Of a stretch of 32,000 nucleotides of DNA, positions 5,890 through 27,894 are shown one piece after another (position 1 is the stretch's first letter; every line of letters begins with the position of its first letter). The DNA is taken from NCBI RefSeq assembly GCF_000012925.1, contig NC_007517.1, forward strand, positions 480,001 through 512,000, written 5' to 3'. This DNA is from Geobacter metallireducens GS-15 (GTDB taxonomy: Bacteria > Desulfobacterota > Desulfuromonadia > Geobacterales > Geobacteraceae). The translations under genes were made by a program, and so were the position numbers. The notes below the pieces were generated by a model. The model ran no database searches, was not told the origin of the DNA, and worked only from the letters and a program-made list of their open reading frames with translations.

Positions 5890-5919
5890 GCAAAAAATCA
5901 GTAAATGTAATTTTTTTTC

Positions 5920-6040: not shown

Positions 6041-6075
6041 GGGGTACGGAAACCCCAAAACAATCTCACGGAGGA
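6041..6075 (+). promoter_or_regulatory. Candidate CsrA binding sites in the fliC 5' leader: hairpin with ACGGAA loop, plus a site overlapping the Shine-Dalgarno
   Basis: ggggt-ACGGAA-acccc (6041-6056) presents GGA in a hairpin loop. cACGGAGGA (6067-6075) overlaps the RBS 9 nt upstream of the ATG. A third hairpin, gagg-GAAA-cctc, lies at 5969-5980. Confidence 0.5.
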
Positions 6076-6083
6076 TTTACACC

Positions 6084-10795: not shown

Positions 10796-13315
10796 TCAAT
10801 CATTCGATGGAGCGGCAAGTCCCTCCAATTGTGAAAGTGCAACTCTGTTTGTCGGGTCATTCTCCAGCACCCTGGCAAAAAGATCCCGGGCCGTGTCCGC
10901 AAGCCCGGCATCCCGGCAAAGTATGCCGAGAGTCACCAGCGTTCCCACATCCTTTGGTGCAATGGAAAGGTAACGGTTGAAGGCATCGAAGGCTTCGTCG
11001 TAGCGCCCAAGGGCCTTCAGAATCTCTCCGTAAGGCGAAAGGTAGGCTGGAGACATGCGTGACAGGCACTCAAGGGCCAGCAGGGCGTTTTCAACGTCGT
11101 TGCCTGCAATGGCAAGAGATGCTATCTGCCGTAAAGCGTCTTCAGTCGTTGGGTGGGGAGGGTCGACCAGCAGGTGCTGGTAGCATTCGATCGCTCTGTT
11201 CGGTTCTTGCTGGAGTTCGGCAATGAGGCCGTTGATGAAATAAAGGTAGGGCTCTGCCTTCTCGCGGTCAGGATGGGAGGCAATCCCTGCTGCCATTGCT
11301 TCCAGTTCTTCACGCTCACCCCGCCGGAAGAGTAGCCGCGCTTTGCTCCGGATGTGCTTCAGGTCATAGCCCTTTTCCAGAAGTTCCATCCTGATGGTCT
11401 GCTCATCGGTCATGAGATGGGTAAATTGATCATCAAGCTCGCGGAATTTTCCCAGAATCGCTTCAGAAAGGCATTGGGCAGTGACAGGGTGATTGCGCAG
11501 CCAAAAGCGACCGCGACCCGGTTGCCCGTCCCGTAACCACTGGGAGATGAAGAGGTCGCAGTCCGGCGAAGACTTTTCCTCTTCTATTCTGGCCTCTATC
11601 CTGGACAGTGCGCTGTTTGTCACAGCCAGAAGTTGGATAGTCCCTGCCATGTATGCCTGATAATAGTCTCGCGTTGCTTTCTCGATCTGTTCGTCTGTCC
11701 ACTCCTGTTCCTCTTTTGGTGTTCTAAGAATTGAGAGGAACTTTTTTAGACCAAACTGCTTTACTAGTAGTGAAAAATCTCCATAACGTCGGTCAAGCTT
11801 TCGTTCAATCTTGTCCATCTGCACTTTATGGCGAAAACTGCGCTCCTTGCCATTGCGTCCGAACAACCCATCAGTACACTCCAAGGCCTCTTGAGAGAGT
11901 GAGAGAATCTCCTTGAATTTGTGCTGGGCACGTTCGAGCTCCTTCTTGATTTTGCGATAGTGGCTCAATCGGGCCTTTGAGGTCGGAGGAGGCAGGTATT
12001 TGTCAATGAGTGCTGAAGTGGAGATCGTGTCTTCAGGCAGGTCGATTTCTGAAGGCGGCCGGTATTCGATGAGGGGAATCTTTGCGGCACCCAGAGAGAT
12101 GTTGTAGAGCCGGTGCCCTTTGCTCACAGCCAGTTCGGCCTGGAGCTTGAGAATCTCCAGCGAGTGTGCGTATCCGTGGTTGGTGTCGGCCAACCAGCCG
12201 CCGTTGGTTTCAATTCGGGGAGAAAGTTGGCCTAGGTCAGGCCCTACCTTGTTTTCAGCGCTGCCGGCGGCGTGGGTATGCCCTTCACGGGAGAAACAGA
12301 GGTCTACCCCGGCAAGAACGATGGTTTCACATCCCATGTTCATGGCAATAGAGAGGGCGTAGTTGCTTACTGTTGGTCCCGTATAGAGATGAGTTTCGAT
12401 GTTCAAAGGGGTGGACCAGGGGAAGAGGCTGTCGGTGTAGGCGCTTCTCCCGCCCCACTGCCCCACCAGCAGGGGGGATGCATGGTAGCTGCTGACGAGG
12501 ACCGGAGATTCCTCCATGTCAGCAAAATATAACATCTCACGGCTCACCTCGAAACTGACCTTCTGGGGGTCAACCGTAGCGACTAGGTGAGGAACTATTT
12601 GCTCGCTCTGCAGGATTTTGCTGATTCGGGAAACGGCAATAAGGACAAGACGGTCGCGGTTTTCCCGAACCCACGGCAGGGCTTCGCGGAGCGATGGACC
12701 ACCGGCAAGGATGACGGCGGTTCTTCCCTTAAAGGTGTCGACGAGGGTCCGGGAGAATGCGACACGGTTTTCTGCAAGATTTTCCAGTTGCCTCAGGATG
12801 TATTGGGTGCAGTTGATGGAGGCATGGGTTTCATGGACGAGAGTTCTGACATTCAGATTGATATTCCAGGAGATGTCTCGATACTCGGGGAGATTGGCAT
12901 CGCTTGAAGCGATTGATTCATTAACCCTGACCGCGTCAATGAAAACATACTCGTTGATTTGCAGGTCGGTTGCTATTTCCTCCCAGGTGTCCGGCGTGGC
13001 GATGATCACTTCAGGCGGGAGTTCCTTAAGGATTCCCTCTTCCGAGAGCCGTTCAATCACCTCCGGCAACTCGATGAAAAGATAACGGGATCCGGAGGGA
13101 ATCCCTTTGTTTACAACATAGGTGGGAAACAGCCCTGAATCTGTCCCGATGATGATGTTAAGCTGATATTCGGCAAAGAGTGATTCTCCGTAGGTTGATG
13201 CATAGAGCGAATCGGAGCCGATGGAGTTGAATGCATTCCGGTTTACCTGGTAGAGGTAGCGATCTCCGAAGTCGTTTACCAAAAATGGCCCGAGGTAATT
13301 TCCCGTATCGGACAT
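10796..13315 (-). CDS. maf: Motility-associated factor (Maf/DUF115, MptE-like) flagellin nonulosonate glycosyltransferase with a C-terminal TPR domain
   Basis: The N-terminus has ...NIIIGTDSGLFPTYV.... The central region (AVILAGGPSL...LIAVSRISKIL...HLVATVDPQ...GPTVSNYALSIAMNMGCETIVLAGVDLCF) is typical of Maf. The last ~170 aa are TPR-like (ECYQHLL..., LKALGRYDEAFDAFNRYLSIAPKD..., ARDLFARVLENDP). I use the ATG at 13315; an alternative GTG lies at 13330. Confidence 0.8.
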   Translation of the reverse strand: MSDTGNYLGPFLVNDFGDRYLYQVNRNAFNSIGSDSLYASTYGESLFAEYQLNIIIGTDSGLFPTYVVNKGIPSGSRYLFIELPEVIERLSEEGILKELPPEVIIATPDTWEEIATDLQINEYVFIDAVRVNESIASSDANLPEYRDISWNINLNVRTLVHETHASINCTQYILRQLENLAENRVAFSRTLVDTFKGRTAVILAGGPSLREALPWVRENRDRLVLIAVSRISKILQSEQIVPHLVATVDPQKVSFEVSREMLYFADMEESPVLVSSYHASPLLVGQWGGRSAYTDSLFPWSTPLNIETHLYTGPTVSNYALSIAMNMGCETIVLAGVDLCFSREGHTHAAGSAENKVGPDLGQLSPRIETNGGWLADTNHGYAHSLEILKLQAELAVSKGHRLYNISLGAAKIPLIEYRPPSEIDLPEDTISTSALIDKYLPPPTSKARLSHYRKIKKELERAQHKFKEILSLSQEALECTDGLFGRNGKERSFRHKVQMDKIERKLDRRYGDFSLLVKQFGLKKFLSILRTPKEEQEWTDEQIEKATRDYYQAYMAGTIQLLAVTNSALSRIEARIEEEKSSPDCDLFISQWLRDGQPGRGRFWLRNHPVTAQCLSEAILGKFRELDDQFTHLMTDEQTIRMELLEKGYDLKHIRSKARLLFRRGEREELEAMAAGIASHPDREKAEPYLYFINGLIAELQQEPNRAIECYQHLLVDPPHPTTEDALRQIASLAIAGNDVENALLALECLSRMSPAYLSPYGEILKALGRYDEAFDAFNRYLSIAPKDVGTLVTLGILCRDAGLADTARDLFARVLENDPTNRVALSQLEGLAAPSND

Positions 13316-13333
13316 GTTAGAGCCTTTCACTAT

Positions 13334-15313
13334 TTATTTCCGTTGTTTGGCAGATTTCGCTGATGCTGCAGATATGGAAATGTGCGCCCTCAAAGGGATT
13401 CTGTTGCGCCTGGGTTTGCTTGTTTCATCCATTTCCGATGCGCTGAAGCCGCATCGGAAAAAGTATGACGGACCTACCGGCTTGCAGGTTACCAGGCCGA
13501 GCAGTGCGGAGAGGGAGCGGTCTACGCTAATCTGCAAGATCGAATGTGCATCTCCGATCTCGATTATCCCTTCAGTCACGCCAAGCCCCTGTTTTGCCGA
13601 CACCAGAAAAGAACTCGCCTCACCGTGGAAAAATCTCTTGCCTGCTACAGGAAAGGTTTCCGGATTGTTTCCACCGTTGTGGGCCCGGAAGAAGAGTGTT
13701 GCAGCGTCGAAGGCTTCGGGATTTATGGTGACGTTGCCGAGTCGCAGGGAGCCCACGGGGATCAAAGGCCAATCGAATCGGTAGTCTATGGAAATTGTAG
13801 TGGTGTTGATGTCAATGCCGACCAGTTTCGTTATGGGACCAAGGGGGGGGCTGAATGTGGCCTCAACGGTTACCATTCCGCCTTCAGGATGCCAGCGAAC
13901 CAACGGTTCGACAGGCGCCAAGTCCGTTATCTTGGGCCGTCCATGGGTCTCGAAGACCGCATGCCCCGTATAAAAATCGGCTCCGGCGGTGATGTCGTCG
14001 AAATAGCCGTGATAGAGGGTGCCGCAGAGGCTGCGTTCGTGGATTCGGGAGAAAACGAGGGAGTCAAAGGCCAACCCGCGGCGCAGGTTCAGCTTGAGCC
14101 GCACCCCTGGCGTTTCGATCGTAAGGTAGTGTCCTTCGCGCAGAGCGGAGACTTCAGGGGGGAGGATCTCCACGCCCCCCTCGACAAGCCTCGTTAAATG
14201 CGTTATCCCACAATGGCGGCCAAAGGAGTTGAGGCGGCTTCGGTAGCGTTTCCAACGGCGCGGGGTAATGTGGGTGCGGAAATCGCTGCTCCAGAGGTAG
14301 CAGAGTTCGCGCCACTCCTGGTCCGTGGCATTTCCCTTTGCCAGCAGCGCGTCGTGAATCCGTTGGCAGGCGGAGTTGATGCCGATGTCGTCCCGACCGG
14401 TGACGGCCCATCGGGTGATGTTGTACTTTTCCTGCTTTTTCACCGGGATAGGTGCCTCGGGGGATTCGAGGCTCAGACGGTTTCCGGCTCCCGGCTCATG
14501 AAGCAGGGAGAGGAGTCGTGAGGGAGGAATGAAGGTGAAGCGTCCCTCCTCCAGCAACCGCTCGAAAAGCTCCCTGATCCGTCCCCACTCGTCATGCTCC
14601 ATGACCGCTTCGGTGGTGAAACGACCGGGGCGGAAGTCAAAAATCTCAATATCATTGCCGTAGAGGGGGATGGCGCGGGTCGTGCCGTTGTCGTGCCGGC
14701 CGATAAGGGCAAGGTAGTCGTCCAGTTCCAACTCGCCATGGACATAGCGCTGGAACTTCTGAAAGAAGATGGAGTTGTTCCAGATGACCGGCAGCTCTTC
14801 GCCATGCTGGCCCATGGCGATCTGGGGAAGATAGCGCCATGCCGGATCCCACTGGGGGTGATGGTAGGCGGGGTTGTCCCATTCCATGACCATGGCCTCG
14901 AAGCCCGCCTCGCGGTAGTGTCCGATGAGCCCGGCGGAGTAAGCCTGTTCGTTGACCAGAACAATGCGTGGGCGCAGTCCCAGAAGCCGCTCATAGGTCT
15001 GGTTGCCGATGCGCAGGTTCTGCCGGTTCACTTCAGCCGGCACCAGGGGGCCGATCATCTGGGAGTAGCCGCTTCCCACCAGCTCGCATTGCCCCGAGCA
15101 GAGTTCCCGAAGTTCCTCCACCCAAGCCGGGTCGATGGCCGCCACGGTCTCGAGGGTATAGCCGGTGATCTCGATGCCGAAGGGGAGGTTTAGGTCGCGG
15201 GCCAGCCGAAGCAGAGGCCAGTAACAGCGGCGGACCACCTCGGGGCGCAACTCTTCCTCGATGGAAGAGAAGGCCAGGTTCAGGTGGAAGATGGTATAGA
15301 GAGATAGTGACAT
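13334..15313 (-). CDS. GH57-like (beta/alpha)7-barrel glycoside hydrolase/transferase family protein
   Basis: 659 aa. The N-terminal ~200 aa resemble GH57 (FHLNLAFSS..., GQCELVGSGYSQMIGPLVP, LVNEQAYSAGL...YREAGFEAMVMEW). The large C-terminal region is unassigned. The start overlaps the ATP-grasp stop by 1 nt (TAATG). Confidence 0.55.
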   Translation of the reverse strand: MSLSLYTIFHLNLAFSSIEEELRPEVVRRCYWPLLRLARDLNLPFGIEITGYTLETVAAIDPAWVEELRELCSGQCELVGSGYSQMIGPLVPAEVNRQNLRIGNQTYERLLGLRPRIVLVNEQAYSAGLIGHYREAGFEAMVMEWDNPAYHHPQWDPAWRYLPQIAMGQHGEELPVIWNNSIFFQKFQRYVHGELELDDYLALIGRHDNGTTRAIPLYGNDIEIFDFRPGRFTTEAVMEHDEWGRIRELFERLLEEGRFTFIPPSRLLSLLHEPGAGNRLSLESPEAPIPVKKQEKYNITRWAVTGRDDIGINSACQRIHDALLAKGNATDQEWRELCYLWSSDFRTHITPRRWKRYRSRLNSFGRHCGITHLTRLVEGGVEILPPEVSALREGHYLTIETPGVRLKLNLRRGLAFDSLVFSRIHERSLCGTLYHGYFDDITAGADFYTGHAVFETHGRPKITDLAPVEPLVRWHPEGGMVTVEATFSPPLGPITKLVGIDINTTTISIDYRFDWPLIPVGSLRLGNVTINPEAFDAATLFFRAHNGGNNPETFPVAGKRFFHGEASSFLVSAKQGLGVTEGIIEIGDAHSILQISVDRSLSALLGLVTCKPVGPSYFFRCGFSASEMDETSKPRRNRIPLRAHISISAASAKSAKQRK

Positions 15314-16527
15314 TAAGGGACCGTCTCGAAGCGGATCACCTGACGAGTTGCATCAATGCGTGACCACGCGTCTTTTTCATCCTCGCCAACAGCGATCACC
15401 CAGCAGCACCGTTTACCGTTGTCTATCATGGGCTCAACCCGATCACCTACAGCCTTCGTAATCAATATCTGCTCGATCCCGGGTAATGCGCGCGCTTCTT
15501 CTATTCCACTGATGGATCTGATTATGCCGGGTTCGGGGAAAATTCCTGCACAGATGGATGTCCTATCATGCTTGGCGGCAAGGAGGCTCTCGTCCAGTTG
15601 CTCTCCCATGGCCAACTTCATGACGGCTTTGATTGGGTCTTTCCCGGAACTCAGAGGTGTCGTGTACTGGGAATGGAATCCACCGCTCAGCCGTGCCGGC
15701 ATCTCGAGTATCATCGGCCCCTGATCGGTCAGTATCATGTCGGCTTTCGCGGGGCCAAAATCAATACCTAACGAGTCGGCAGCAGCATCGACGACCTCAC
15801 AGATGCGCTTTTGTGTTTCCTTGTCGAGGTTCGAGGGGTCCACATGGGCTGTTTCTATGGCGTAGGGAGCGAAACCGAAGTGCCTGTCAGCCAGACTAAC
15901 GTGATAATGCTTCCCCTTCCAAATGATGGTTTCGACGCTCTGTTCTTTCCCCACTACGAATTGCTCGATAATTGCCGTCCCGGTTCGCGAGGTGGCGCAG
16001 GCGGCTTTGAAGGCGGCGGGAAGCTGATCAGGCCGGTCGATGCGCATGCTCCCCCGTGATGCAGCGCCATCAACTGCTTTTACGATGGCAGGGAAGCCTG
16101 TATGAACAAGAATTTTTTGAGCTTCCTCCAGCGTCGACGCTTCGGCGCTCCATGGGGTCGGAATTTTGTCCCGCAGCCATCTTTCTTTCATAAGGGCCTT
16201 GTTGTTCGACCGTCTGGCCACCTCCACCGGAACCCCTGGCAAGCCGAGTTCCTCGCAGACCGCTGCAACCGTAATTGCCACATCTGCGCCGGCAAAGGCC
16301 CCTTTCAGCCCAACCCTTTTCCCGTGCTCCCTCGCCCATGCCACATGCCCCTCGACATCTTTGACGTCCAGTACGAGGTGCTCGTCCGCCAGTTGGAACC
16401 CTGGGGCCTCGGGATTGCGGTCACTGGCGATGACATAGTATCCGAGGGCGCGGGCTCGCTCTAATGCGGGTATCTGCATTATGCCGGCACTGACTACGAG
16501 AATGGCGGGGCGTTTTTCAGAGTTCAT
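15313..16527 (-). CDS. ATP-grasp domain ligase
   Basis: A pre-ATP-grasp region (ILVVSAGIMQIPALERARALGYYVIASD) is followed by NKALMKERW...GFPAIVKAVDGAASRGSMRI...IIEQFVVGKEQSVE.... I prefer the ATG at 16527 (RBS aaggaa); the ORF track start at 16602 would overlap the SDR gene by 29 nt. Confidence 0.8.
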   Translation of the reverse strand: MNSEKRPAILVVSAGIMQIPALERARALGYYVIASDRNPEAPGFQLADEHLVLDVKDVEGHVAWAREHGKRVGLKGAFAGADVAITVAAVCEELGLPGVPVEVARRSNNKALMKERWLRDKIPTPWSAEASTLEEAQKILVHTGFPAIVKAVDGAASRGSMRIDRPDQLPAAFKAACATSRTGTAIIEQFVVGKEQSVETIIWKGKHYHVSLADRHFGFAPYAIETAHVDPSNLDKETQKRICEVVDAAADSLGIDFGPAKADMILTDQGPMILEMPARLSGGFHSQYTTPLSSGKDPIKAVMKLAMGEQLDESLLAAKHDRTSICAGIFPEPGIIRSISGIEEARALPGIEQILITKAVGDRVEPMIDNGKRCCWVIAVGEDEKDAWSRIDATRQVIRFETVP

Positions 16528-16573: not shown

Positions 16574-17416
16574 TTATTCCAGGTTTGATTCAGGGTCGTC
16601 ATAGAAGTGCAGAAGATCGGTCAACGTTTCTGGGCTCTGGTATGCCGCCCATGTCCCGTCGGGCCACGAGTGCCCTTCTATAACGTATCCGTCGTCGCAG
16701 AAAATCACGTTGCCAGTCAGGTGCCGTTGGGGGATACATAGGGCAATGGCCGATTCCACGACCCCCTCTACCGTAGCGAACCGCTTGGTGGGAGTATGCG
16801 CCAGTATCGAAGCAGCTCTGCGTGACAGTTGCCCGACATCGTCCCGCAACAAGTGCCGATTGAGCGGTGTTTCAACGGTTCCCGGGGCCAACCCGTTGAC
16901 ACGGACCCCAAAACGGGCCAGTTGCGCTGCGGAACTTTTGACTAGACCTTCAAGGCCATGTTTTGATGCGACATAGGCGTGAGAACCTTCCAGGGAAACC
17001 CTGGATGCATCGGAACACAAGTGGACGAGATGACCGTGGCGCTGCTTGACAAACAGACGCGCGAATCCGGCTGTCAGAAGAAATGCGCCGGTGAGGTTTG
17101 TGTTTATGACTCGCGACCAGTCGTTTAAAAGCTCTGGAATATCTTCTTGCCCGAGCTTCATCACGGCATGGTGTGTCCCGGTAAAATTGAAGGCCACATC
17201 GATGCGGAGGTTGCGTTTTCCCAGAGCGGTGAAGAAGTTGCTGACCGAAGACGGGTCGGTAACGTCCACTGGCAGGTGAGGGAGGCCGATCTCGGGATCT
17301 TTTCGCCCCGCGACGATGCAGGCCGCCCCTACTGCCGTTGCTGCTTGGGCGAAGGCCCGCCCCAAGACCCCGCTTGCCCCCAGAACGACGATGTTCATGC
17401 CACTAAGAATTCCCAT
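16574..17416 (-). CDS. Short-chain dehydrogenase/reductase (classical SDR)
   Basis: Contains the NIVVLGASGVLGRAF nucleotide-binding motif and the YVASKHGLEGL (YxxxK) catalytic motif. An RBS (ggaagg) lies upstream, and the start overlaps the upstream gene by 14 nt. Confidence 0.85.
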   Translation of the reverse strand: MGILSGMNIVVLGASGVLGRAFAQAATAVGAACIVAGRKDPEIGLPHLPVDVTDPSSVSNFFTALGKRNLRIDVAFNFTGTHHAVMKLGQEDIPELLNDWSRVINTNLTGAFLLTAGFARLFVKQRHGHLVHLCSDASRVSLEGSHAYVASKHGLEGLVKSSAAQLARFGVRVNGLAPGTVETPLNRHLLRDDVGQLSRRAASILAHTPTKRFATVEGVVESAIALCIPQRHLTGNVIFCDDGYVIEGHSWPDGTWAAYQSPETLTDLLHFYDDPESNLE

Positions 17417-18824
17417 GGGCTACCTTCCATCCGAAGAAAGATTGTGCATTAGCATAGAAAAGGTCACGGCAAAACTCATCGATGTCAACCTGATCGGGGT
17501 TGAAAAGACCGGATTCCAGATCGTCAGCCAAACGTAGCGTTATGGCTTTACGGAAATATTCGTGACGGGCCGTTGAGAGAAAACTTCGGGAGTCTGATGC
17601 CATGCCGACGAAAGTTCCGAGAACACCAACAGCGCATTGAGCGTTCAGGTGGTCCTCTATGCCGTATATCTGGTCGAGAAACCACCAAGGGGGACCGTGC
17701 TGAACTTTCCCTCGAATTCCCTCTCCCCAAAAACTTCCGGCAATGGTCGCGAACATTAACGTGTCACGGGGATTCGAATTGAACAGAATCGTTTTCGGCA
17801 ACCGCTCGGAGGTGTCCAGTTGATCGAGGAACGCAACGAGAGACTCCCCCTGCGGGAAATCTCCTATAGAGTCGCAACCTGCATCCAGGCCGTATGATGA
17901 AAAAATTCGGGTGTTGTTGTTCCTGCGAGCCCCAAGGTGCAACATCATCGTCCAGCCGGATTCGTGATTCCATTCTGCGATCTGGCGCATGAACCAACTG
18001 CGCCATTTTTCGAGATCATCAGCGTCGATATCGGAAGAACTTAAAAGCAACCGGCTGAAGATGGTGGTGGCTTCGGCGTCCGAGCAAGGAGTTGCGTAGC
18101 ACCGGTCCATCCCATGGTCGGAGACCCGGCATCCGAGTTTGTGGAAGAATTCATATCGGACCCGAAGCGCCTCCATGAATGTTTGTAACGACTCTATTGC
18201 GATGCCGGAACATGCTTCGAGCCGTGAGCGCCAATCGTGAAAATTCTGGCGGGTGTGGAGGCAAAGCGCGGAGTCAGGGCGAAAGGTCGGGAAAACCCGA
18301 AAAGAGACCTCCTTATCTTCTACAAGTTGGCGGTGCGCTTCCAACTGGTCGGCTGGATCGTCAGTGGTGCAGAGGACTTCGACGCCAGCTCTTGCCAGTA
18401 ACTTCCGTGGCCGGAAGTTTTCGGTCGCGAGCATCGAGTTCGCCTCTTCCCATATGCACTCTGCAGAAGACGGTGTCAGCGGAGCCGTTATGCCGAAAGT
18501 CCGCTTGAGCTCAATCTGGCACCACGCCTGCATTGGGCTTGAGGCCATCCGCGTGATGGTGCGAGCCCACGCATCAAACCGTTCTTTTGGCGACGCTGAG
18601 CCGGTGCACAGATCCTCGCGCTCACCGGCTATCCGCATGGCTCGCCATTTATAGTGGTCTCCTTCGATCCACAGTTCCGAAAGATCCCTGAAGTGGGCAT
18701 TACTGGCAAGCCTTGCCGGCGGCAGATGGCCGTGATAGTCAATGATTGGCAAGGAGGCATGTCGCTCGTACAGGGTAAGGGCGTTTTCTCTTACAGATGC
18801 CGTGAAATTACGCCTAATCGTCAT
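17403..18824 (-). CDS. uxaC: Glucuronate (uronate) isomerase UxaC-family protein
   Basis: 473 aa. LYERHASLPIIDYHGHLPPARLASNAHFRDLSELWIEGDHYKWRAMRIAGEREDLCTGSASPKERFDAWA...QIELKRTFGI is a clear UxaC N-terminal signature, including the HxH metal motif. Confidence 0.8.
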   Translation of the reverse strand: MTIRRNFTASVRENALTLYERHASLPIIDYHGHLPPARLASNAHFRDLSELWIEGDHYKWRAMRIAGEREDLCTGSASPKERFDAWARTITRMASSPMQAWCQIELKRTFGITAPLTPSSAECIWEEANSMLATENFRPRKLLARAGVEVLCTTDDPADQLEAHRQLVEDKEVSFRVFPTFRPDSALCLHTRQNFHDWRSRLEACSGIAIESLQTFMEALRVRYEFFHKLGCRVSDHGMDRCYATPCSDAEATTIFSRLLLSSSDIDADDLEKWRSWFMRQIAEWNHESGWTMMLHLGARRNNNTRIFSSYGLDAGCDSIGDFPQGESLVAFLDQLDTSERLPKTILFNSNPRDTLMFATIAGSFWGEGIRGKVQHGPPWWFLDQIYGIEDHLNAQCAVGVLGTFVGMASDSRSFLSTARHEYFRKAITLRLADDLESGLFNPDQVDIDEFCRDLFYANAQSFFGWKVAHGNS

Positions 18825-18873: not shown

Positions 18874-19758
18874 TCAGCGTCGAACAAAACGGATCAACTG
18901 TGTCGAGCCTAGATCACCCAGTTTGGCCAGCGTATCGAACAACTGCTTGTAGGGCTGCGGGATGATACTTCCTGGGGCGTTTGCCCCAAATGACGCAACT
19001 TGAACGGCGGTAAACCCGTAACGATCAAATTGACGCAGAATGCCTTCCCTGCTTGGAAGCTGAAGATGCTGAACAGGAAGAAAATGGTGCCATTGCGGTC
19101 CTAGAATTTGGGCATGAACATGGGCGCGGGGAGTTTGGATAAGAACCTGACCTCCTGATTTCACTCTCCGGGATAGCGTTGTCAGTAATCCGGGGAGATC
19201 GGCTATATGTTCGTAGACATCCCAAAGAGTGACGATGTCGGTTAGACTCTCTCCTGCCAGCCACTCGTTGATTGGTTCGAAGTTGTGCCCCCGAACCGCA
19301 AGATGAAGAGTGTCTTCTCGTGGGTAATCGACAGCCGTTGTCTTTCCCATATTCGGTTGTGTTGCCCGGCAGACGTCAAGGAAAACGCCATCGTATGCAC
19401 CGAAATCCACAAGGTCTTTGCCTTGCTCCAACTCTAGGCCTATATCGTTGATGCTTAAACGGTATTCCCGCTCTCTGGTTTCCCGCCACTCATCGCTATA
19501 TCGCTTTCCATCATTTGCGTCGGTGTTTGTCGCTGCCATTTTATGGTGGACTGAATAGTCAGAATAAAATGCATTCAGGCGCTCAATGTCCGGTTCGCGG
19601 CCTATGGACCATGACCCACACGCTCCACAGAGAATCCAGGTCGTCTCGTAAGGCTGCTGACCCGACGTTACTGTCGTTTCGGTCAATGTCTCCCCGCATA
19701 TCCGGCAGACCGTAGTTTGTCTGTCCCCACAGAATGATTTTATTGTCTCGGCAACCAT
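18874..19758 (-). CDS. Class I SAM-dependent methyltransferase with an N-terminal Cys4 zinc ribbon
   Basis: CRICG...CGACG is followed by LVDFGAYDGVFLD (motif I) and DIVTLWDVYEHIADLPGLLTTLSRRVKSGGQVLIQTP. I prefer the ATG at 19758 (RBS aaagga, 6-nt spacing) over 19824. Confidence 0.8.
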   Translation of the reverse strand: MVAETIKSFCGDRQTTVCRICGETLTETTVTSGQQPYETTWILCGACGSWSIGREPDIERLNAFYSDYSVHHKMAATNTDANDGKRYSDEWRETREREYRLSINDIGLELEQGKDLVDFGAYDGVFLDVCRATQPNMGKTTAVDYPREDTLHLAVRGHNFEPINEWLAGESLTDIVTLWDVYEHIADLPGLLTTLSRRVKSGGQVLIQTPRAHVHAQILGPQWHHFLPVQHLQLPSREGILRQFDRYGFTAVQVASFGANAPGSIIPQPYKQLFDTLAKLGDLGSTQLIRFVRR

Positions 19759-19768
19759 TTCGTATCCT

Positions 19769-20686
19769 TTAATCAGTTCGCCGTGAATAAAGACATACTT
19801 CACGACCAATGTTGAGATTGGCAAGGCTTTGGTACAACGATCTCTTGACTGATGTTAGCCCAGCGGCGGCGAGGTTGGTTTCGAACTGCATGCGTTTCGC
19901 GTGACATGCACGACCTCGCGTGTCATTTCCTATATAGTTGTCACCCATAAGCAGGAACAGATCGATAGGAAAAGTTGATTCCTTGCACGTAACTTCAAAT
20001 CCGCTTCTCGTCAACAAATGTTCCAGGGATTCGAAGTCGAAGAAATTGATGTGATGGGGAGGGGCAACCCACCACGGTTGGAAATTACAGGCCGTGCGAA
20101 GGGCCAGTTGAAATGGGTTGTAGTCGTTCGGAACGACGACGCAGAGAATTCCCTCGGGGGTTAGGTTCTTTCGGACAATGCCGAGGAAATGTTCAGGATC
20201 GGGGATGTGCTCCAGTACCGCACTCATGTGTATGACATCAAATAGCCCGAGTTGAATCGCAGTGTCGGTCGAGAAAAACTCCTCGATGATGTCGAGGCCC
20301 ATTTCCCGGCTGTGAGCCGCTGCTCGGGCCGAGGGTTCAATCCCGACTGTTTCCCATCCGCGGTCTTTGCCATGTTTCAGGAAAAAGCCGGGGCCTGACC
20401 CTATATCGAGGATACGGCGGCGCTTTTGGGGGAGCAGTTCTTCAAAGGTGTCGTAACGATCACCATAAACCAGATTCCACCAGTCCAGATCCTCCCGGTA
20501 ACGTTCCAGGTAAAGAGGTTTCTCGGATGTATAGTATTCGTGCCGATAAACCTCTTCCAGTTCTTCCGCTGACGGAATCGGAACGATATGCTTAAAACCG
20601 CATTTGCTGCAGTCGATGACATCAAATCCCTTGACTGAGTCGCAGACTTCACCTTCATGATCACACCAGGTTTTCTTTTCAGCCAT
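19769..20686 (-). CDS. Class I SAM-dependent methyltransferase with an N-terminal zinc ribbon (paralogous architecture to 18874-19758)
   Basis: CDHEGEVC...CSKCG is followed by RILDIGSGPGFF and FDVIHMSAVLEHIPDPEHFLGIVRKNLTPEGILCVVVPN. The ATG at 20686 overlaps the pseF-pseG stop by 8 nt; an alternative TTG lies at 20716. Confidence 0.8.
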   Translation of the reverse strand: MAEKKTWCDHEGEVCDSVKGFDVIDCSKCGFKHIVPIPSAEELEEVYRHEYYTSEKPLYLERYREDLDWWNLVYGDRYDTFEELLPQKRRRILDIGSGPGFFLKHGKDRGWETVGIEPSARAAAHSREMGLDIIEEFFSTDTAIQLGLFDVIHMSAVLEHIPDPEHFLGIVRKNLTPEGILCVVVPNDYNPFQLALRTACNFQPWWVAPPHHINFFDFESLEHLLTRSGFEVTCKESTFPIDLFLLMGDNYIGNDTRGRACHAKRMQFETNLAAAGLTSVKRSLYQSLANLNIGREVCLYSRRTD

Positions 20687-22460
20687 GAGAAGAATGCATC
20701 CTTTCCAGTTTTTCAACGATCTTCGTGGCTATCCGCGTCGCACCGTACCCATCGACAGTGGCGCAGGCGCGGCGTCCCACTTCGTGTCTGAGTTCCCGAG
20801 AGTCAAGAAGTGATAATGTCGATTCGATAATCCTCTCATTGCTGCATTCTTCGAGTACGCCGCAACTGAAAGCAAGCCGGTCATCGACAAACTTTGAGGC
20901 CGAACGGGCGTGATCCGGAGTCAGGCATAAATACACTGCCGGTACGCCGGATGCTGCCAACTCGTAAGCTGTTACACCAAAAGACGCGATGGCCAGATCG
21001 GCTTGTCGCATGAGTGATGCCATGTCGCTTACTTCCCGTTCGATACGGTAGTGGCGTCGGGCTTGGGAGAGAAACTGCTGCAGGTCCTCTTCATGGACAA
21101 AACCTGCCCCTATAACCACGATCGTTTCAAAATCATTCTGCAATTCGTCAAGGACGCGGAGAACCCTAACAGTGAAATTCGCAGGGTCACTCCCTCCCAT
21201 GGTGAGAAGGAGTGCTGGAGGATTGTTGTTGCGCGGGGGGCAGGGCGCGCAGAATTGTTTGCGGAGTAAAACCCACTCCCAACCGCTGCAGATCTCACCG
21301 TTGAAATTATTCCAATTCAGTTCTGAAATCTGAGGGATGGGAGGATAGAAAAGGAGATCGGCTGCAAGGCGTCGAGGCGTAGGATCATCTATGCCAACGA
21401 CCAGAATGCCATCCTCGCGCCAGGAATCGACTTTTTCCACGGGCAAATCGTTCCGTATATCGAGTATCAGGACGTCGGGGTGATGGCGCGAAATCAGTCC
21501 ATCCATCCATTCCCCTTCGTCTGCATCTTCCTGCCGTTCGAGCGGAAAATCCGCTTGGCGCACCATTTTCATGCCGGGTTCGCCGCTGGCCATGGCGAAG
21601 ATTATACCGCAGCCCTGCTTCTCTCGCAGTTCTCCTGCAAGAGCCAGGCAACGAACCACATGCCCGAGGCCGGTACGACTATCGCCATCGCAACGAATGA
21701 GAACCTTGTGGCTCCGGTCGGTTGCTTTTTTCTGATAGACATGTTGATTGATTTGAAGCAGGTGAGGATTGTTCCTGAGAAGTCGTACGACGTCGGCAAT
21801 ATCGGCATCCCCCGCAGGAACGCCGAGAAGCCGGTAAAGTTCATCGAAAAATTGCACATCCGCCGGAGTATCGACAGACAGCCGGGCGCCTTTGAAGCGG
21901 TGTTCGTTGCCGACTGGAATCCGGGCAATATGAAATTTGTCCGGGTGTGCAATGAAGTAGGCCGTTACATGCTCAATGGCCACCGGATCATCGGGGGCTT
22001 CGGTCATGAGCCTCTTCAGGGCTCCACGCGTGAAGGTGCAGAACCCTTCGTGAATGGAATTAATCCCTGCTTCGATAGTGCAGTACTCAGCCCCTTCCTG
22101 CAAGAGGGTTCGCACCAACCGGTCCATTACCTCGGGATCCACCAAGGGAGCATCGCCAGTAACACGAATGATGACATCGGCATCAACCTCTTCTGCCGCC
22201 TTGTTGAAGCGCAAGAGGACATTGTCCTCGGAGCCTCTCACCAGGGTAACCCCTCGCGTTTGGGCGAAGTCAACCAGAGGGTCGTCGCAGGGCTTGTCCG
22301 ATGTGGCGATAACTATGTCATCGAGAGTGCGGCTGCGGCGAAGGCGGTCAATAATATGCTCAAGCAGCGGTTTGCCCGCCACTGTCATGAGCACCTTTCC
22401 CGGCAGGCGCGAAGAACCCATGCGGGCTTGAATGACAGCTACAATTTTCTTTTTAGCCAT
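20679..22460 (-). CDS. Bifunctional cytidylyltransferase (PseF/SpsF-like) fused to UDP-2,4-diacetamido-2,4,6-trideoxy-L-altropyranose hydrolase (PseG-like)
   Basis: The N-terminal half has KIVAVIQARMGSSRLPGKVLMTVAGKPLLEHIIDRL...IRVTGDAPLVDP (CTP-transferase-3 type). From about aa 250 it has VLIRCDGDSRTGLGHVVRCLALAGEL and LLTMGGSDPANFT (PseG/SpsG type). Confidence 0.8.
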   Translation of the reverse strand: MAKKKIVAVIQARMGSSRLPGKVLMTVAGKPLLEHIIDRLRRSRTLDDIVIATSDKPCDDPLVDFAQTRGVTLVRGSEDNVLLRFNKAAEEVDADVIIRVTGDAPLVDPEVMDRLVRTLLQEGAEYCTIEAGINSIHEGFCTFTRGALKRLMTEAPDDPVAIEHVTAYFIAHPDKFHIARIPVGNEHRFKGARLSVDTPADVQFFDELYRLLGVPAGDADIADVVRLLRNNPHLLQINQHVYQKKATDRSHKVLIRCDGDSRTGLGHVVRCLALAGELREKQGCGIIFAMASGEPGMKMVRQADFPLERQEDADEGEWMDGLISRHHPDVLILDIRNDLPVEKVDSWREDGILVVGIDDPTPRRLAADLLFYPPIPQISELNWNNFNGEICSGWEWVLLRKQFCAPCPPRNNNPPALLLTMGGSDPANFTVRVLRVLDELQNDFETIVVIGAGFVHEEDLQQFLSQARRHYRIEREVSDMASLMRQADLAIASFGVTAYELAASGVPAVYLCLTPDHARSASKFVDDRLAFSCGVLEECSNERIIESTLSLLDSRELRHEVGRRACATVDGYGATRIATKIVEKLERMHSSHG

Positions 22461-23313
22461 TCCATTCGTTCCTTACATGCAGAAAAGGTCTCAAGCCGTC
22501 GGAAGGGTCGGCACGCCATTCGCGGTCAGGGAACTCAACGGGGGTGGGCACCTTTTCTCCTGTGCCGTCTGCAGACAGAGCAGTGCTCACATCCGCAATG
22601 ACGGCTTTGATTCCGTCAGGGAGCCAGCAATGGCCGGTCGCGAACTCTTCTCCCTCACCTTCCAGGTCGAGATGGAACTCCACTGCACTGGCTTCCCACT
22701 GATGCACTGCCCGCTGGATTACTGCAGGGGAGACGCTATGGTCGGACCAGCCTACCGGGCAACCGAAGCGTGAGCGAATGGTTTCAATGGCTGCGAGGTT
22801 GCACTCTTCTGGGGGGGCAGGATACCCGGAAACACAGTGGAGCAGGGTAAGATCCCTGCACCCCGCTGTGCGCAGCATTTCCACCGCACCGCCAATCTCG
22901 TCCAGTGTGGCCATCCCTGTTGAAAGGATCACGGGTTTTCCGGTCGCGGCACATGCCCGTAACAGGTCATTCCAGAGAAGCTCATATGATGCGATTTTAT
23001 AAAAATCCACATACGGCAAGAGCTCTTCTACCGCCTGGAGGTAAAAGGGGGTGCACGAAAACTGAATCCCCTGCTTTCGGCACCTCTCGGCGAGGGGAGA
23101 GAGAAATTCAACGGGGAGTTCCCATGCTTTCCGTGCCCTGAGCACGGGGCTCTTGGCGAGAACTTCCGGCGCGAAGAGTTCCTCGACTCGGAAAAGCTGG
23201 AACTTTACCGCTCCACAGCCTACGGCCGCTGCGGTGTCGATGAAGCGAAAGCAGCGCTCCAGGTCGCGGTGGTGATTGCTGGATACCTCTGCTACGAAAA
23301 GGGGGCTGCTCAT
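22453..23313 (-). CDS. pseI: NeuB-family nonulosonate synthase (PseI-like), short form without the C-terminal SAF domain
   Basis: 286 aa. FVAEVSSNHHRDLERCFRFIDTAAAVGCGAVKFQLF...FYKIASYEL...KPVILSTGMATLDEI...LLHCVSGYPAP...GWSDHS is a NeuB TIM-barrel signature. It is about 55-60 aa shorter than a typical PseI. An RBS (aggag) lies upstream. Confidence 0.75.
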   Translation of the reverse strand: MSSPLFVAEVSSNHHRDLERCFRFIDTAAAVGCGAVKFQLFRVEELFAPEVLAKSPVLRARKAWELPVEFLSPLAERCRKQGIQFSCTPFYLQAVEELLPYVDFYKIASYELLWNDLLRACAATGKPVILSTGMATLDEIGGAVEMLRTAGCRDLTLLHCVSGYPAPPEECNLAAIETIRSRFGCPVGWSDHSVSPAVIQRAVHQWEASAVEFHLDLEGEGEEFATGHCWLPDGIKAVIADVSTALSADGTGEKVPTPVEFPDREWRADPSDGLRPFLHVRNEWNG

Positions 23314-23534: not shown

Positions 23535-25553
23535 TCATGCTTTCCGTGCAGCAATTTTCATCTGTCCGTGATATTCGTCGCCAGAACTCACTTCAAGACA
23601 CTGGAATCCATACTTTTTCAATAGAATTCTTATCGAGATGAAATCATAGAGCACGGGATGGAGGGGGGCGTCGAGATGACGCCATTGCTCGCCGGCATAT
23701 GCGGCATCGGCCGAATTTATGTTGGGCGTATTGAGCAGGATGAGCCCCCCTTGCTTGAGAATTCTGCGGAGAATGGTTAGAAAAGGTGCAGGATTTGCAA
23801 TATGTTCGAGGACATCCCACGCGGTGACAACATCAAAAGTTTCGTCGTCAAAGCTGGATTCGAGCAGTGTTCCCGTGGTTACCGCCAAACCATACTTTTC
23901 TCGCGCAACTTCTGCGGCTTTGTCTGAAATCTCGATGCCGCATACATCCCAATACCTGAGGCTGGCTTCCCAGAGGAACGCCCCGGTGGAGCAGCCAATG
24001 TCCAGTAATTTGCCTCGGGGGAATTTCAACTCTTCTGGAACATACTTTTCGACAAAATCCATCCGTCGCTGATGGAGAAAAAACGAGTTTGGATTTGGCG
24101 TGTCCAGATTCGGATCCCATCCCATTTTCTGTCTGTGTTGGGGGGAATAGTAAATCTCATTGTAAAATTTGGTCAGGTATTCATCTGTGGGGCAAGGATT
24201 GAGAAAGACCGCCTGGCAATCCATGCATTGATCAAAGGTAGATTTGTAATCTTCATGGCCCAGGAACGAAAACTTTAAATTGAATTCCGTGCCTCCACAA
24301 ACAGGGCATGTGTTCAAGTCTTTGCAGTAATCGGCATAGTTATCTTCATCTATTGCCAGTATGCTGCGCGACGTTTGAGTTTTTGGTTGTTGCGGGCGGT
24401 TCAAAAAGTTGATCGCTGCAAGTTTTTCCACTATCTGGTCGGCCCGGTGCCGATAGGTATGGTGGCGGAGGGTATGATCGTACAGGTCGGCAACCAGTTC
24501 TCGCCGCTCCTGCGCATGCGTAAGGAAATACTCACCTTTCTCCGCAAATTCGTCGAGATTTCTGAAGGTGATCTCTTCCCAGTGCGCAGGAAAAGCCCGA
24601 ATCATGTCGTCCCGGTAATCGTTCAGCATGAATGCCTTGGATGCGTAAGCGTCAAACGGTCGATTGTTGATGGCTTTTTCAAGCTGCAGGGAAGAGATGT
24701 TAAGATTCAATGCGTATTGCTGGAATGCCTTTGACAGTTCAGTGCCGTAGGGAACTTTTTCATGGAAAATGGCGTTCGGTTTGTCCCAACCATTCCCTCC
24801 GCCATAAATGTGCAGATCCACGCCTTCAATGCTGTCGAGGATATATTTCCTCATGACAGTGCTGCCCTTGCCGTGAATCTTGTAATAGATCATCTGCCAG
24901 AAACTGGCGGGTTCAGTCGTGTACACCTGATGGACAGCGCGATACTCCGGGGTTGAAAAAAACTGTTTGCAGATTTCAAATGTGGGAACTTCCATGTTAT
25001 GGAGCTTGGAATAGATTACCTCGTCAATGAATTTGTCTACGAGTTCTATCCCTACACAGTTCTGTTCAACGTGAGCCGATACTCCACCGACAAAACAGAC
25101 TGAAGATTCTATGCAGGGAGAGTCGAGTGCGATTGGGTGAAACCAGGTAGGATCAGTTGCCAAAAGAATATGGTCGCAGTTCTCCGTCCCGTCATTCCGA
25201 AGCAACTCCAGAAAACTATCATCCCAGACGAATTCATAATAATATTCCGGGAAATTGTTGATCTCGTCGGAGAGTCCATCGTTTCTCGCTAGATAGGGAC
25301 AATCGTAATGGAGCGAGACCAGCGGGATTCCCAATTCGCGGAGGGCATAACCGTTGGGGGATTTGCAGAACCCATTGTAACCATAGGCAAGAACGAAATC
25401 AGGCTGAAAAGAGCGTAGTTTGGTAAAGTCGAGTCCTTCCGTAGTCAGGTCGATTCCCCAAACTTCATGGCCTGCTTCGCGAAATCCGGTGATGTATCCA
25501 TCTATGACGAAAGGGGCAATAACCCCGGATGTCCTGAAAATTGCAATTTTCAT
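23535..25553 (-). CDS. Fusion protein: CgeB-like glycosyltransferase (DUF3880 / Glyco_trans_1_2 type) plus Zn-ribbon class I SAM methyltransferase
   Basis: In the N-terminal ~390 aa, ...LNLNISSLQLEKAINNRPFDAYASKAFMLNDYRDDM...FRNLDEFAEKGEYFLTHAQERRELVADLYDHTLRHHTYRHRADQI is CgeB-like. The C-terminal part has CPVCGG...CMDCQ, LLDIGCSTGAFL and FDVVTAWDVLEHIANPAPFLTILRRILKQGGLILLNTPN. Confidence 0.75.
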   Translation of the reverse strand: MKIAIFRTSGVIAPFVIDGYITGFREAGHEVWGIDLTTEGLDFTKLRSFQPDFVLAYGYNGFCKSPNGYALRELGIPLVSLHYDCPYLARNDGLSDEINNFPEYYYEFVWDDSFLELLRNDGTENCDHILLATDPTWFHPIALDSPCIESSVCFVGGVSAHVEQNCVGIELVDKFIDEVIYSKLHNMEVPTFEICKQFFSTPEYRAVHQVYTTEPASFWQMIYYKIHGKGSTVMRKYILDSIEGVDLHIYGGGNGWDKPNAIFHEKVPYGTELSKAFQQYALNLNISSLQLEKAINNRPFDAYASKAFMLNDYRDDMIRAFPAHWEEITFRNLDEFAEKGEYFLTHAQERRELVADLYDHTLRHHTYRHRADQIVEKLAAINFLNRPQQPKTQTSRSILAIDEDNYADYCKDLNTCPVCGGTEFNLKFSFLGHEDYKSTFDQCMDCQAVFLNPCPTDEYLTKFYNEIYYSPQHRQKMGWDPNLDTPNPNSFFLHQRRMDFVEKYVPEELKFPRGKLLDIGCSTGAFLWEASLRYWDVCGIEISDKAAEVAREKYGLAVTTGTLLESSFDDETFDVVTAWDVLEHIANPAPFLTILRRILKQGGLILLNTPNINSADAAYAGEQWRHLDAPLHPVLYDFISIRILLKKYGFQCLEVSSGDEYHGQMKIAARKA

Positions 25554-27878: not shown

Positions 27879-27894
27879 TGCAAGTACGGTGCCG
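27879..27894 (-). promoter_or_regulatory. Candidate sigma-54 promoter of the pseB...maf operon
   Basis: The minus strand reads CGGCACCGTACTTGCA, with GG-N10-GC spacing and 15/16 match to TGGCAC-N5-TTGCA. It lies about 65 nt upstream of the pseB ATG. Confidence 0.65.

Follow-up and report, generated by a model that had tools for sequence, protein, structure and literature searches.

Why does a gene of a hexuronate-catabolism family lie in a biosynthetic operon of a flagellar region? An earlier, sequence-only reading of this Geobacter metallireducens locus proposed that a UxaC-family enzyme had been recruited there, acting either on a different substrate or in the reverse, biosynthetic direction. 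Within the window, the 32,000-nucleotide stretch of DNA analysed here, the gene occupies exactly the interval it had been given, 17403–18824, and lies on the minus strand: a single 473-aa frame runs from an ATG at 18824, preceded by the ribosome-binding site AGGAAAAGGA, to a TAG at 17403, and the plus-strand translation of the same interval contains many stops. Both N-terminal motifs by which the family had been recognized, PIIDYHGHL (residues 26–34) and GDHYKWRAMR (residues 55–64), are found in the minus-strand translation. The glucuronate isomerase identity is borne out by a full-length match to Pfam PF02614 (635 bits, model positions 5–464 of 464), by a score of 522 bits against the NCBIfam glucuronate isomerase equivalog NF002794 (cut-off 387) and by the glucuronate isomerase 3IAC as the top solved-structure match (E 3.6e-107); the AlphaFold2 model of the protein has a pLDDT of 92.3. 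The best reading of this homologue is a predicted, catalytically intact uronate aldose–ketose isomerase.

Ordinary hexuronate catabolism is an unlikely task for this isomerase, because the genome lacks the enzymes that would surround it. The lack of uxaA, uxaB, uxuA, uxuB and eda nearby, remarked upon before, holds for the window and also genome-wide: family searches of the window and of the complete 4.01-Mb Geobacter genome (completeness 100%) found no UxuA, UxaA, UxuB/UxaB-type dehydrogenase (Mannitol_dh) or KDPG aldolase, and the genome likewise yielded no KduI and a single copy of uxaC. This copy is thus the sole uxaC, with no uxu, uxa or eda genes elsewhere that could depend on it, and the proposal of recruitment survives the refuting condition that had been set for it. 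The description of uxaC as isolated does not hold, as a 14-nt overlap links the uxaC stop to the start of a short-chain dehydrogenase/reductase (SDR) gene, implying translational coupling, and this reductase could fill the UxuB/UxaB role. Its best NCBIfam match is the D-mannonate oxidoreductase PRK08277, but at a score far under the cut-off; orthologues 54–74% identical follow UxaC in loci L082, L084, L086 and L087.

Judged by its gene content, the surrounding operon is a predicted Pse-type nonulosonic-acid flagellin glycosylation operon (Table 1), encoding PseB, PseC, a short NeuB, a PseF–PseG fusion, two methyltransferases, UxaC, the SDR, an ATP-grasp ligase, a GH57/GH38-like protein and Maf. 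PseB and PseC are recognized at the equivalog level, both scoring over their NCBIfam cut-offs. The PseG model TIGR03590 reaches 135 bits (cut-off 153.55), the PseI model TIGR03586 171 bits (cut-off 340), the SAF domain being missing, and the PseF model is matched weakly (27.5 bits), with CTP_transf_3 clear in the same protein. A genome search identifies the short NeuB as the sole true NeuB of the organism. For PseH, TIGR03585 gave no match in the genome at E ≤ 0.001 in a search that matched 13 of 14 control genomes, and the operon holds no GNAT-family gene.

Table 1. Features of the window, in order of position (L numbers denote compared loci).
Feature	Position	Strand	Evidence
Flagellin, presumed glycan acceptor	5784..6911	+	Flagellin_N + Flagellin_C
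Maf-type flagellin nonulosonate transferase, C-terminal TPR, last gene of operon	10796..13330	-	MptE-like 150 bits + TPR
GH57/GH38-like two-domain protein, constant cassette member	13334..15313	-	Pfam GH57 E 2.6e-15
ATP-grasp carboxylate-amine ligase (LAL_C2 type)	15313..16527	-	LAL_C2 + ATP-grasp_4
SDR reductase, proposed keto-uronate reductase	16574..17416	-	adh_short_C2 119 bits
473-aa uronate isomerase of the UxaC family, in the nonulosonic-acid-cluster clade	17403..18824	-	Pfam, NCBIfam, tree
SAM methyltransferase 2 (Methyltransf_23)	18874..19824	-	Pfam; orthologue in L002, L082
SAM methyltransferase 1 (Methyltransf_23)	19769..20716	-	Pfam
CMP-sugar cytidylyltransferase + PseG-like UDP-sugar hydrolase fusion	20679..22460	-	CTP_transf_3 + Glyco_tran_28_C
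Short NeuB/PseI-like nonulosonate synthase, 286 aa, without SAF domain	22453..23313	-	NeuB 205 bits
Glycosyltransferase-like + methyltransferase fusion	23535..25553	-	Pfam
PseC aminotransferase	25594..26790	-	TIGR03588 568 bits vs cut-off 423.5
PseB UDP-GlcNAc 4,6-dehydratase (inverting), first gene of operon	26787..27815	-	TIGR03589 534 bits vs cut-off 407.75
Sigma-54-like motif CGGCAC-N5-TTGC	27880..27894	-	65 nt upstream of pseB; one mismatch to consensus

Several of these genes merit closer description. The AlphaFold2 model of the GH57/GH38-like protein (pLDDT 90.7) retrieves in Foldseek the GH57 4-alpha-glucanotransferase 1K1X (E 1.4e-23) and GH38 mannosidases (TM 0.64–0.66). The ATP-grasp gene probably starts at 16527 (404 aa) and not at 16602; its homologues measure about 404 aa, spanning 94% of the longer ORF, and the ESM Atlas entry begins at residue 26 of that ORF. 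An ESM Atlas match to a cluster composed mostly of Spirochaetota is recorded only as a lead towards the flagellin glycan of Treponema denticola, taken up below. The fusion of a glycosyltransferase-like domain with a methyltransferase is missing from the pseC–neuB interval of a sister species' operon (L002), and it marks the GC minimum of the operon (0.47). Since the Flagellin_N match to the longest ORF starts only at residue 105, the real flagellin is probably about 275 aa long. The flagellar control proposed earlier fares unevenly: the location in a flagellar region stands, but the window holds 34 sigma-54-like motifs of equal quality where chance predicts 32, and it is position alone that supports the one upstream of pseB. 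Sigma-70 and terminator scans inside the operon returned nothing above shuffled sequences.

Placed in a tree, as the sequence-only reading had advised, the UxaC homologue falls within a clade of 44 rows (SH-aLRT 100, stem 0.34) that is separate from canonical UxaC. In all seven contigs examined (neighbourhoods were viewed directly for 7 of the 44 clade members), a methyltransferase–UxaC–SDR–(methyltransferase)–ATP-grasp cassette is accompanied by NeuB, a CMP-transferase and a GH57-like gene; the surroundings are flagellar, adjacent to pilin genes or of the capsule/O-antigen type. A further 11 members are tied indirectly to ATP-grasp matches. About 75 canonical UxaC loci, by contrast, gave no tblastn match to any cassette protein other than generic SDRs; E. 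coli uxaC has uxaA, exuT and exuR as neighbours, whereas the Geobacter copy sits in a nonulosonate tailoring cassette. The nearest canonical locus (L004, Acidobacteriota) contains carbohydrate-active genes and no uxu or uxa genes, so the contrast is drawn with the E. coli locus and the tblastn-screened loci. The recruitment goes beyond a single case, since clusters of this kind house a whole UxaC clade that spans phyla; that a UxaC-family enzyme has passed out of catabolism into a biosynthetic operon of the flagellar region is supported by clade, operon content and missing catabolic genes alike. Among the papers covered by our literature searches, none joins nonulosonic or pseudaminic acid with uxaC or with glucuronate or uronate isomerase, and none joins Geobacter metallireducens with glucuronate isomerase; matches to Geobacter with pseudaminic acid were irrelevant.

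The comparison of active sites that had been called for gives a divided picture as to the different substrate suggested earlier, in which the catalytic residues are all unchanged while several positions invariant in canonical enzymes are switched. The homologue shares fold and family over its full length with canonical UxaC (E. coli b3092; PDB 3IAC, 1J5S), is about 45% identical to canonical UxaC of other phyla, and keeps every residue of the metal site, the catalytic set and the conserved motifs. Across an alignment of 126 sequences, 44 of them clade members, H33, H35, H59, Y60, R185, D187, H297, W381, D412 and R414 (E. coli numbering) are kept in 126/126, and the query equivalents H31, H33, H57, Y58, D411 and R413 are invariant. 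We take the metal ligands to be the HxH after β1 and the Asp after β8, and His59, Tyr60 and Arg414 to be further mechanistic residues; every residue with a presumed role in binding the metal or the substrate carboxylate is among those kept. The reaction is probably of the canonical type, aldose to ketose on a uronate. Fixed differences set the clade apart at sites invariant in canonical enzymes, namely Q295 to M or L, Y349 to F (44/44) and S379 to P, which lie within or adjoin barrel strands β5, β6 and β7 in the secondary structure of the AlphaFold2 model.

Sister cassettes differ in the isomerase that they carry. In L088, L096 and L098, a KduI/IolB cupin with a KduD-like SDR stands in for UxaC at the same cassette position, beside orthologues of the same methyltransferase, ATP-grasp and GH57-like genes (39–50% identity for those of L088). 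Methyltransferase 1 is kept upstream of the isomerase in both types of cassette, with orthologues 49–73% identical in L082, L084, L086, L087 and L088. KduI/IolB enzymes also interconvert the aldose and ketose forms of a C6 uronate, with reduction by an SDR as the next step, but they have a cupin fold in place of the amidohydrolase barrel of UxaC, their known substrates are deoxy-uronates, and the Geobacter genome contains none of them. On the evidence of these gene neighbourhoods, the exchange of UxaC for the cupin is an apparent non-orthologous displacement by an unrelated fold. Cassettes L095 and L097 have no isomerase at all; the isomerase is therefore an accessory part rather than a core one.

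From this gene content we lean, by a narrow measure, towards a pathway in which UxaC and its SDR would convert a hexuronate into a hexonate-type acid that is O-methylated and amide-linked to N7 of mono-acetyl pseudaminic acid. PseB and PseC would first produce UDP-4-amino-4,6-dideoxy-L-AltNAc, whose 4-amino group would stay unacetylated, PseH being missing. A hexuronate, probably derived from UDP-glucuronate, would be isomerized by UxaC to a keto-uronate, which the translationally coupled SDR would reduce to a hexonate-type C6 polyhydroxy acid, and the two methyltransferases would O-methylate that acid. In favour of this pathway, a UDP-glucose dehydrogenase gene directly adjoins the GH57-like gene in L095 and L098, and the Geobacter genome has two genes of that family. 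The ATP-grasp ligase would then form an amide between the carboxylate of the acid and the free amine, the future N7 of the nonulosonate, after which PseG, the short NeuB and PseF would complete and CMP-activate the sugar and Maf would transfer it to Ser/Thr residues of flagellin. The GH57/GH38-like protein possibly frees the reducing end of an NDP-uronate. We infer the uronate substrate, the order of steps, the attachment site and the role of this glycosidase-like protein.

Two characterized flagellin glycans offer precedents for this pathway. In Shewanella oneidensis MR-1, sfmABCDE (short NeuB, SDR, methyltransferase, ATP-grasp and a TPP enzyme) is needed to make a flagellin glycan composed of mono-acetyl Pse (274 Da) and a 236-Da moiety with 0–2 methyls (PMC3765264). 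The likeness, one of domain content between our operon and the published description, lies in a short NeuB (290 aa in Shewanella, 286 aa in Geobacter) together with an SDR, a SAM methyltransferase and an ATP-grasp_4 protein beside maf and flagellin. Clear PseH, PseG, PseI and PseF orthologues were not found in S. oneidensis (Bubendorfer et al. 2013, PMC3765264), whereas in Geobacter PseH is the only one with no match, the PseG and PseI models scoring under their cut-offs and the PseF model being matched weakly. The carbon-skeleton enzyme also differs, being the TPP-dependent SfmB in Shewanella and UxaC here, where the operon has no TPP enzyme and UxaC takes up the variable position; a GH57-like gene belongs to the Geobacter operon and not to sfmABCDE, and a hexonoyl group (178 Da) does not account for the 236-Da moiety. 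In Treponema denticola, small D0/D1-only flagellins carry a Pse-configured nonulosonate with a 2-methoxy-4,5,6-trihydroxy-hexanoyl chain (PMC13439194). This O-methylated C6 polyhydroxy acyl chain is the kind of product predicted for Geobacter, but it is 3-deoxy (KDG-like) and fits a 4-deoxy-uronate/KduI-type route better than UxaC; as the Geobacter operon has no dehydratase, its product cannot equal the T. denticola chain. The T. denticola structure reportedly goes back to Kurniyati et al. 2017.

The same biosynthetic purpose could be served by other chemistry, a reading that we consider unlikely although far from negligible. In one form, the ATP-grasp ligase would link the carboxylate of NDP-glucuronate to the amino sugar first, the GH57/GH38-like protein would free the anomeric carbon, and UxaC would then isomerize the glucuronamide; isomerization may indeed follow ligation in this way. 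In the other, the uronate-derived unit would be attached otherwise than as the N7 acyl group, and the ATP-grasp enzyme could add an amino acid rather than a sugar acid, because it is of the L-amino-acid-ligase type (LAL_C2 is typical of such ligases). The constant presence of the glycosidase-like protein in the cassette speaks for such chemistry, as does the UDP-glucose dehydrogenase gene that directly adjoins the GH57-like gene in L095 and L098, and the three clade-specific switches would suit a modified substrate. Against it stand the retention of every residue that we take to bind metal or carboxylate and the nature of the substitutes for UxaC, since KduI/IolB enzymes are, to our knowledge, known only with free uronates; nothing discriminates between the step orders.

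Running UxaC in reverse, from ketose to aldose, so that an aldo-uronate would be built into the glycan as a sugar, is very improbable. The UxaC reaction is reversible as a matter of established enzymology, but a source of fructuronate or tagaturonate is not apparent, UDP-glucuronate is directly obtainable through UDP-glucose dehydrogenase (the family has two genes in this genome), and the operon holds no dedicated uronate-activating nucleotidyltransferase. The reverse direction entertained by the sequence-only reading is also not needed, because the coupled SDR, which would pull the forward reaction, and the KduI/IolB swap both fit aldose-to-ketose isomerization followed by reduction. That an ordinary catabolic glucuronate isomerase merely landed here by horizontal transfer, as a hitch-hiker or scavenger with no glycan role, would accord with the score above the NF002794 cut-off, an island GC lower than that of the flanks, a nearby ISL3 transposase and the presence of uxaC in just 3 of the 12 species sampled from the genus, but this account is close to refuted by the missing downstream pathway, the translational coupling to the SDR, the monophyly and long stem of the clade, a gene order conserved down to 48–50% identity across unrelated contexts and the analogous isomerase that takes the place of UxaC in sister cassettes.

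Returning to the hexonate-type pathway, we give an even chance to its extension to the whole clade, in which UxaC, interchangeable with IolB/KduI cupins, would turn sugar acids derived from NDP-hexuronates into the O-methylated C6 polyhydroxy N-acyl chains of nonulosonic acids. These chains may decorate flagella, pili and capsules, and the enzymes may have an altered specificity, for an amide-bound, deoxy or methylated uronate, marked by Q295M/L, Y349F and S379P. Nonulosonic acids on such surface structures, flagellin included, shape motility as well as phage and immune recognition, and no part of these sugars varies more, or has a poorer genetic explanation, than the side chains. Linking a cassette of methyltransferase, uronate isomerase, SDR and ATP-grasp ligase to C6 hydroxy-acid side chains would provide a predictor of glycan chemistry that can be read from genomes, with specific masses to expect in a Geobacter amenable to genetics. 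It also proposes how the otherwise unexplained flagellin glycans of T. denticola and Shewanella might be built and, if true, would supply the missing genetics for a T. denticola-type flagellin glycan. Because the clade scores over the glucuronate isomerase equivalog cut-off, the analysis flags a systematic annotation error: if the reading is right, the clade's genes are misnamed as catabolic glucuronate isomerase under NCBI's model. For the family, the locus would represent a catabolic enzyme lineage that has split off a biosynthetic clade, together with non-orthologous displacement by a different fold.

The sequence-only reading had placed a gene of the glucuronate isomerase (UxaC) family at 17403-18824, and this is borne out, with the strand as the sole addition needed. 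The plus-strand frame over this interval is closed; the minus strand carries a single ORF of 473 residues, preceded by a good ribosome-binding site. The query protein contains both motifs named in that reading (residues 26-34 and 55-64), matches Pfam UxaC end to end (635 bits), scores 522 bits on the NCBI glucuronate-isomerase equivalog model against a cut-off of 387, and has the glucuronate isomerase 3IAC as its best solved relative (E 3.6e-107).

Domain scans of all large ORFs in the window set the gene within a tightly packed operon between two flagellar blocks. This operon is a pseudaminic-acid-type flagellin glycosylation island, with UxaC in its tailoring half, where the end of UxaC and the start of the SDR gene overlap by 14 nt. 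We refer to the methyltransferase (MT)-UxaC-SDR-(MT)-ATP-grasp gene set, with the GH57-like gene, as the cassette.

Genes of the flagellar region and glycosylation operon, and cupin genes occupying the UxaC slot at other loci (L handles)
Feature	Position	Strand	Remarks
flgI, flgN, flgK, flgL, fliW, flagellin, ISL3 transposase, fliD, fliS, fliT	left part of the window	plus	
PilZ gene, motA/motB	right part of the window		
Operon	27815 to 10796	minus	tightly packed, between the flagellar blocks
PseB		minus	first operon gene listed; TIGR03589, 534 bits
PseC		minus	after PseB; TIGR03588, 568 bits
Glycosyltransferase-like/methyltransferase fusion	23535-25553	minus	after PseC
NeuB	22453-23313	minus	286 aa, without SAF domain
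Cytidylyltransferase-PseG fusion		minus	after NeuB
Two Methyltransf_23 genes		minus	between cytidylyltransferase-PseG fusion and UxaC
UxaC	17403-18824	minus	
SDR		minus	after UxaC
ATP-grasp ligase	15313-16602	minus	LAL_C2 domain; longest ORF
GH57-like protein	13334-15313	minus	659 aa
Maf-TPR protein		minus	last operon gene
KduI/IolB-family cupin	L088:11223-12002		in UxaC slot
KduI/IolB-family cupin	L096:3661-4551		in UxaC slot
KduI/IolB-family cupin	L098:8193-9017		in UxaC slot

No gene of the operon is lower in GC than the glycosyltransferase-like/methyltransferase fusion (0.47). The operon of a sister species (L002), 93% identical, has nothing like it between pseC and neuB, so the fusion looks like a recent insertion. 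An intact ISL3-family transposase gene (7069-8292) lies where a lower-GC block has its edge, separating the flagellin gene from fliD. In the longest flagellin ORF (5784-6911, TTG start), which overlaps fliW, Flagellin_N begins at residue 105; the real flagellin probably has about 275 residues and D0/D1 domains only, like the flagellins adjoining the cassettes of L082 and L088. The ATP-grasp ORF is probably over-extended, with its start near 16527, as homologues have about 404 residues and the ESM Atlas record begins at residue 26.

Among 201 sampled genomes of the order, three carry the gene, all of one genus and with flanking genes alike, and a Desulfuromonadales MAG fragment (70% identity) shows MT-MT-UxaC. 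A large protein search returned a graded set of relatives whose identity falls from 95% to about 44%. The phylogeny proposed in the sequence-only reading, built here from 126 sequences by a quick maximum-likelihood method with E. coli UxaC as the root, places the query apart from canonical UxaC in a clade of 14 rows (SH-aLRT 100, stem 0.31), itself nested in a clade of 44 (SH-aLRT 100, stem 0.34). We examined contigs for seven spread-out members (P0006, P0009, P0015, P0032, P0037, P0016 and P0031; 63-49% identity), and all seven lie in nonulosonic-acid clusters with MT-UxaC-SDR-(MT)-ATP-grasp, usually joined by a short NeuB, a CMP-transferase, PseB/PseC and the GH57-like gene. One cluster is a flagellar island that includes flagellin, FlaG, FliD, FliS and a pair of Maf genes, and others contain flippases, Wza/Wzz/Wzy or Capsule_synth; one adjoins pilin and PilS/PilR, and one comes from Roseateles asaccharophilus. 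Identities to the window's proteins (SDR 54-74%, ATP-grasp 62-74%, MT1, the methyltransferase upstream of the isomerase, 52-73%, GH57-like 42-56%) argue clearly that these neighbours are orthologues, and indirect evidence puts UxaC and ATP-grasp on the same contigs in 11 further clade members, whose longest contigs equal in length those of ATP-grasp search hits. Generic SDR similarity apart, tblastn found no match to cassette proteins at about 75 canonical UxaC loci (39-45% identity), from Flavobacteriia, Acidobacteriota and other groups. Whereas E. coli uxaC neighbours uxaA, exuT and exuR, the query lies in a nonulosonate tailoring cassette; UxaC in such clusters is a clade, not an accident.

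Short NeuB proteins (283-296 aa) accompany most inspected UxaC-type cassettes, and a NeuB of full length, SAF included, is present in the KduI-type locus L088; absence of the cap may leave space for a bulky N-acyl group. In the capsule-type cluster L087 (14430-16347), the GH57-like gene appears as two tblastn pieces meeting at 14851-14852 and the second methyltransferase is fragmented too; frameshifts or errors of assembly may account for these breaks.

Tracing relatives of the ATP-grasp and GH57-like proteins further afield led to three loci (L088, L096 and L098) in which orthologous MT, ATP-grasp and GH57-like genes (49%, 50% and 39% identity, respectively, in L088, the locus compared) accompany a KduI/IolB-family cupin in place of UxaC. 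These cupins score 225 and 119 bits on Pfam, have IolB 5-deoxy-glucuronate isomerase as their best NCBIfam model, and are paired with a KduD/gluconate-5-dehydrogenase-like SDR. Two uronate isomerase folds stand in for one another here, a case of non-orthologous displacement. The folds are unrelated, have nothing in common but aldose-ketose isomerisation of C6 uronates, and are each followed by a reductase; no other evidence argues as strongly that the slot requires precisely this chemistry. A UDP-glucose 6-dehydrogenase gene directly adjoins the GH57-like gene in L095 and L098, preceded in L098 by a sugar-phosphate nucleotidyltransferase, which points to an NDP-hexuronate precursor. In the cassettes of L095 and L097 no isomerase gene was found in either locus; therefore, the isomerase is an interchangeable acid-supply part outside the cassette core. 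The AT-rich contig of L098 carries at 1-106 a neighbour from the LIC12162 family; this family takes its name from a locus tag of Leptospira, which hints at a spirochaete origin.

Comparison of 82 canonical and 44 clade sequences in E. coli numbering (Ec) revealed 106 positions conserved in both sets, among them H33, H35, H59, Y60, R185, D187, H297, W381, W382, D412 and R414, from which we infer that the catalytic apparatus of the clade enzymes is intact. Other sites, invariant or near-invariant in canonical enzymes, are switched: Q295 (100% Q in canonical enzymes) to M/L, Y349 to F in 44/44, S379 to P in 43/44, H105 to R/Q/C, G434 to A, A24 to V/H/T and L55 to I. In the AlphaFold2 model of the query (pLDDT 92.3), M294 (Ec Q295) lies on strand beta5 two residues before a conserved His, F348 (Ec Y349) immediately precedes the invariant N349 at the end of beta6, and P378 (Ec S379) occupies the loop that follows beta7, directly ahead of the invariant WW pair. 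Amidohydrolase-fold enzymes form their active site at these strand ends, so the modelled switches would fit a substrate pocket that has been reshaped and made less polar.

ATP-grasp enzymes join carboxylates to amines, and UxaC, the SDR and the methyltransferases most likely supply the carboxylic acid for such a ligation. PseB and PseC would make a 4-amino sugar whose amine would stay free of acetylation, because no PseH was found anywhere in the genome. UxaC would convert a hexuronate (gluco or galacto, free or amide-bound) to a keto-uronate, the coupled SDR would reduce this to a hexonate-type acid, the methyltransferases would O-methylate it, and the ATP-grasp enzyme would ligate it to the free amine. 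PseG, the SAF-less NeuB (the genome's one real NeuB) and PseF would then finish and activate the sugar for transfer by Maf. The genome also holds two UDP-sugar dehydrogenase family genes. The GH57-like protein, which is constant in the cassette and has thousands of relatives in different phyla, resembles GH57 4-alpha-glucanotransferase and GH38 alpha-mannosidases across both domains in its model (pLDDT 90.7), a fold that would suit freeing the anomeric carbon, whether of an NDP-uronate or, after ligation, of the intermediate. The glycan predicted for this organism would carry a hexonoyl chain with 0, 1 or 2 methyls (452.16, 466.18 or 480.20 Da).

Two published glycans show that products of the proposed kind exist. 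On S. oneidensis flagellin, a mono-acetyl Pse of 274 Da is accompanied by a moiety of 236 Da that has 0-2 methyls; this glycan requires sfmABCDE, the genes for a short NeuB, a TPP enzyme, an SDR, a methyltransferase and an ATP-grasp protein (PMC3765264). SfmA, at 290 aa, is a short NeuB like that of the window. On T. denticola flagellin, a 2-methoxy-4,5,6-trihydroxy-hexanoyl chain is attached to a nonulosonate of Pse configuration (PMC13439194); we reproduced the mass of this glycan by arithmetic (274.12 + 176.07 = 450.18).

The serious rival to this scheme keeps the biosynthetic role and differs in the order of steps or in the chemistry of attachment. The reverse, biosynthetic direction suggested for UxaC in the sequence-only reading is not supported, as no substrate source is apparent for it and the coupled reductase is left out of account. 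That reading had also named a refuting scenario, in which uxu/uxa genes elsewhere in the genome depend on this copy as a misplaced catabolic gene. The genome (4,011,182 bp, two contigs, scored 100% complete) was searched by family, with control genomes matched in each catabolic-family search; the query is its one UxaC, and UxuA, altronate dehydratase (UxaA-type) domains, Mannitol_dh-type UxuB/UxaB, KDPG aldolase and KduI were not found genome-wide, so this scenario does not apply. A hitch-hiking catabolic gene is close to excluded, given also the clade's conserved nonulosonic-acid neighbourhoods and the analogous cupins filling the slot elsewhere.

Both the sfm operon and flagellin islands that carry additional tailoring genes were already known; our literature search found no paper linking a uronate isomerase to nonulosonic acids. 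The UxaC cassette is widespread and allows testable mass predictions, and its UxaC clade exposes a systematic misannotation.
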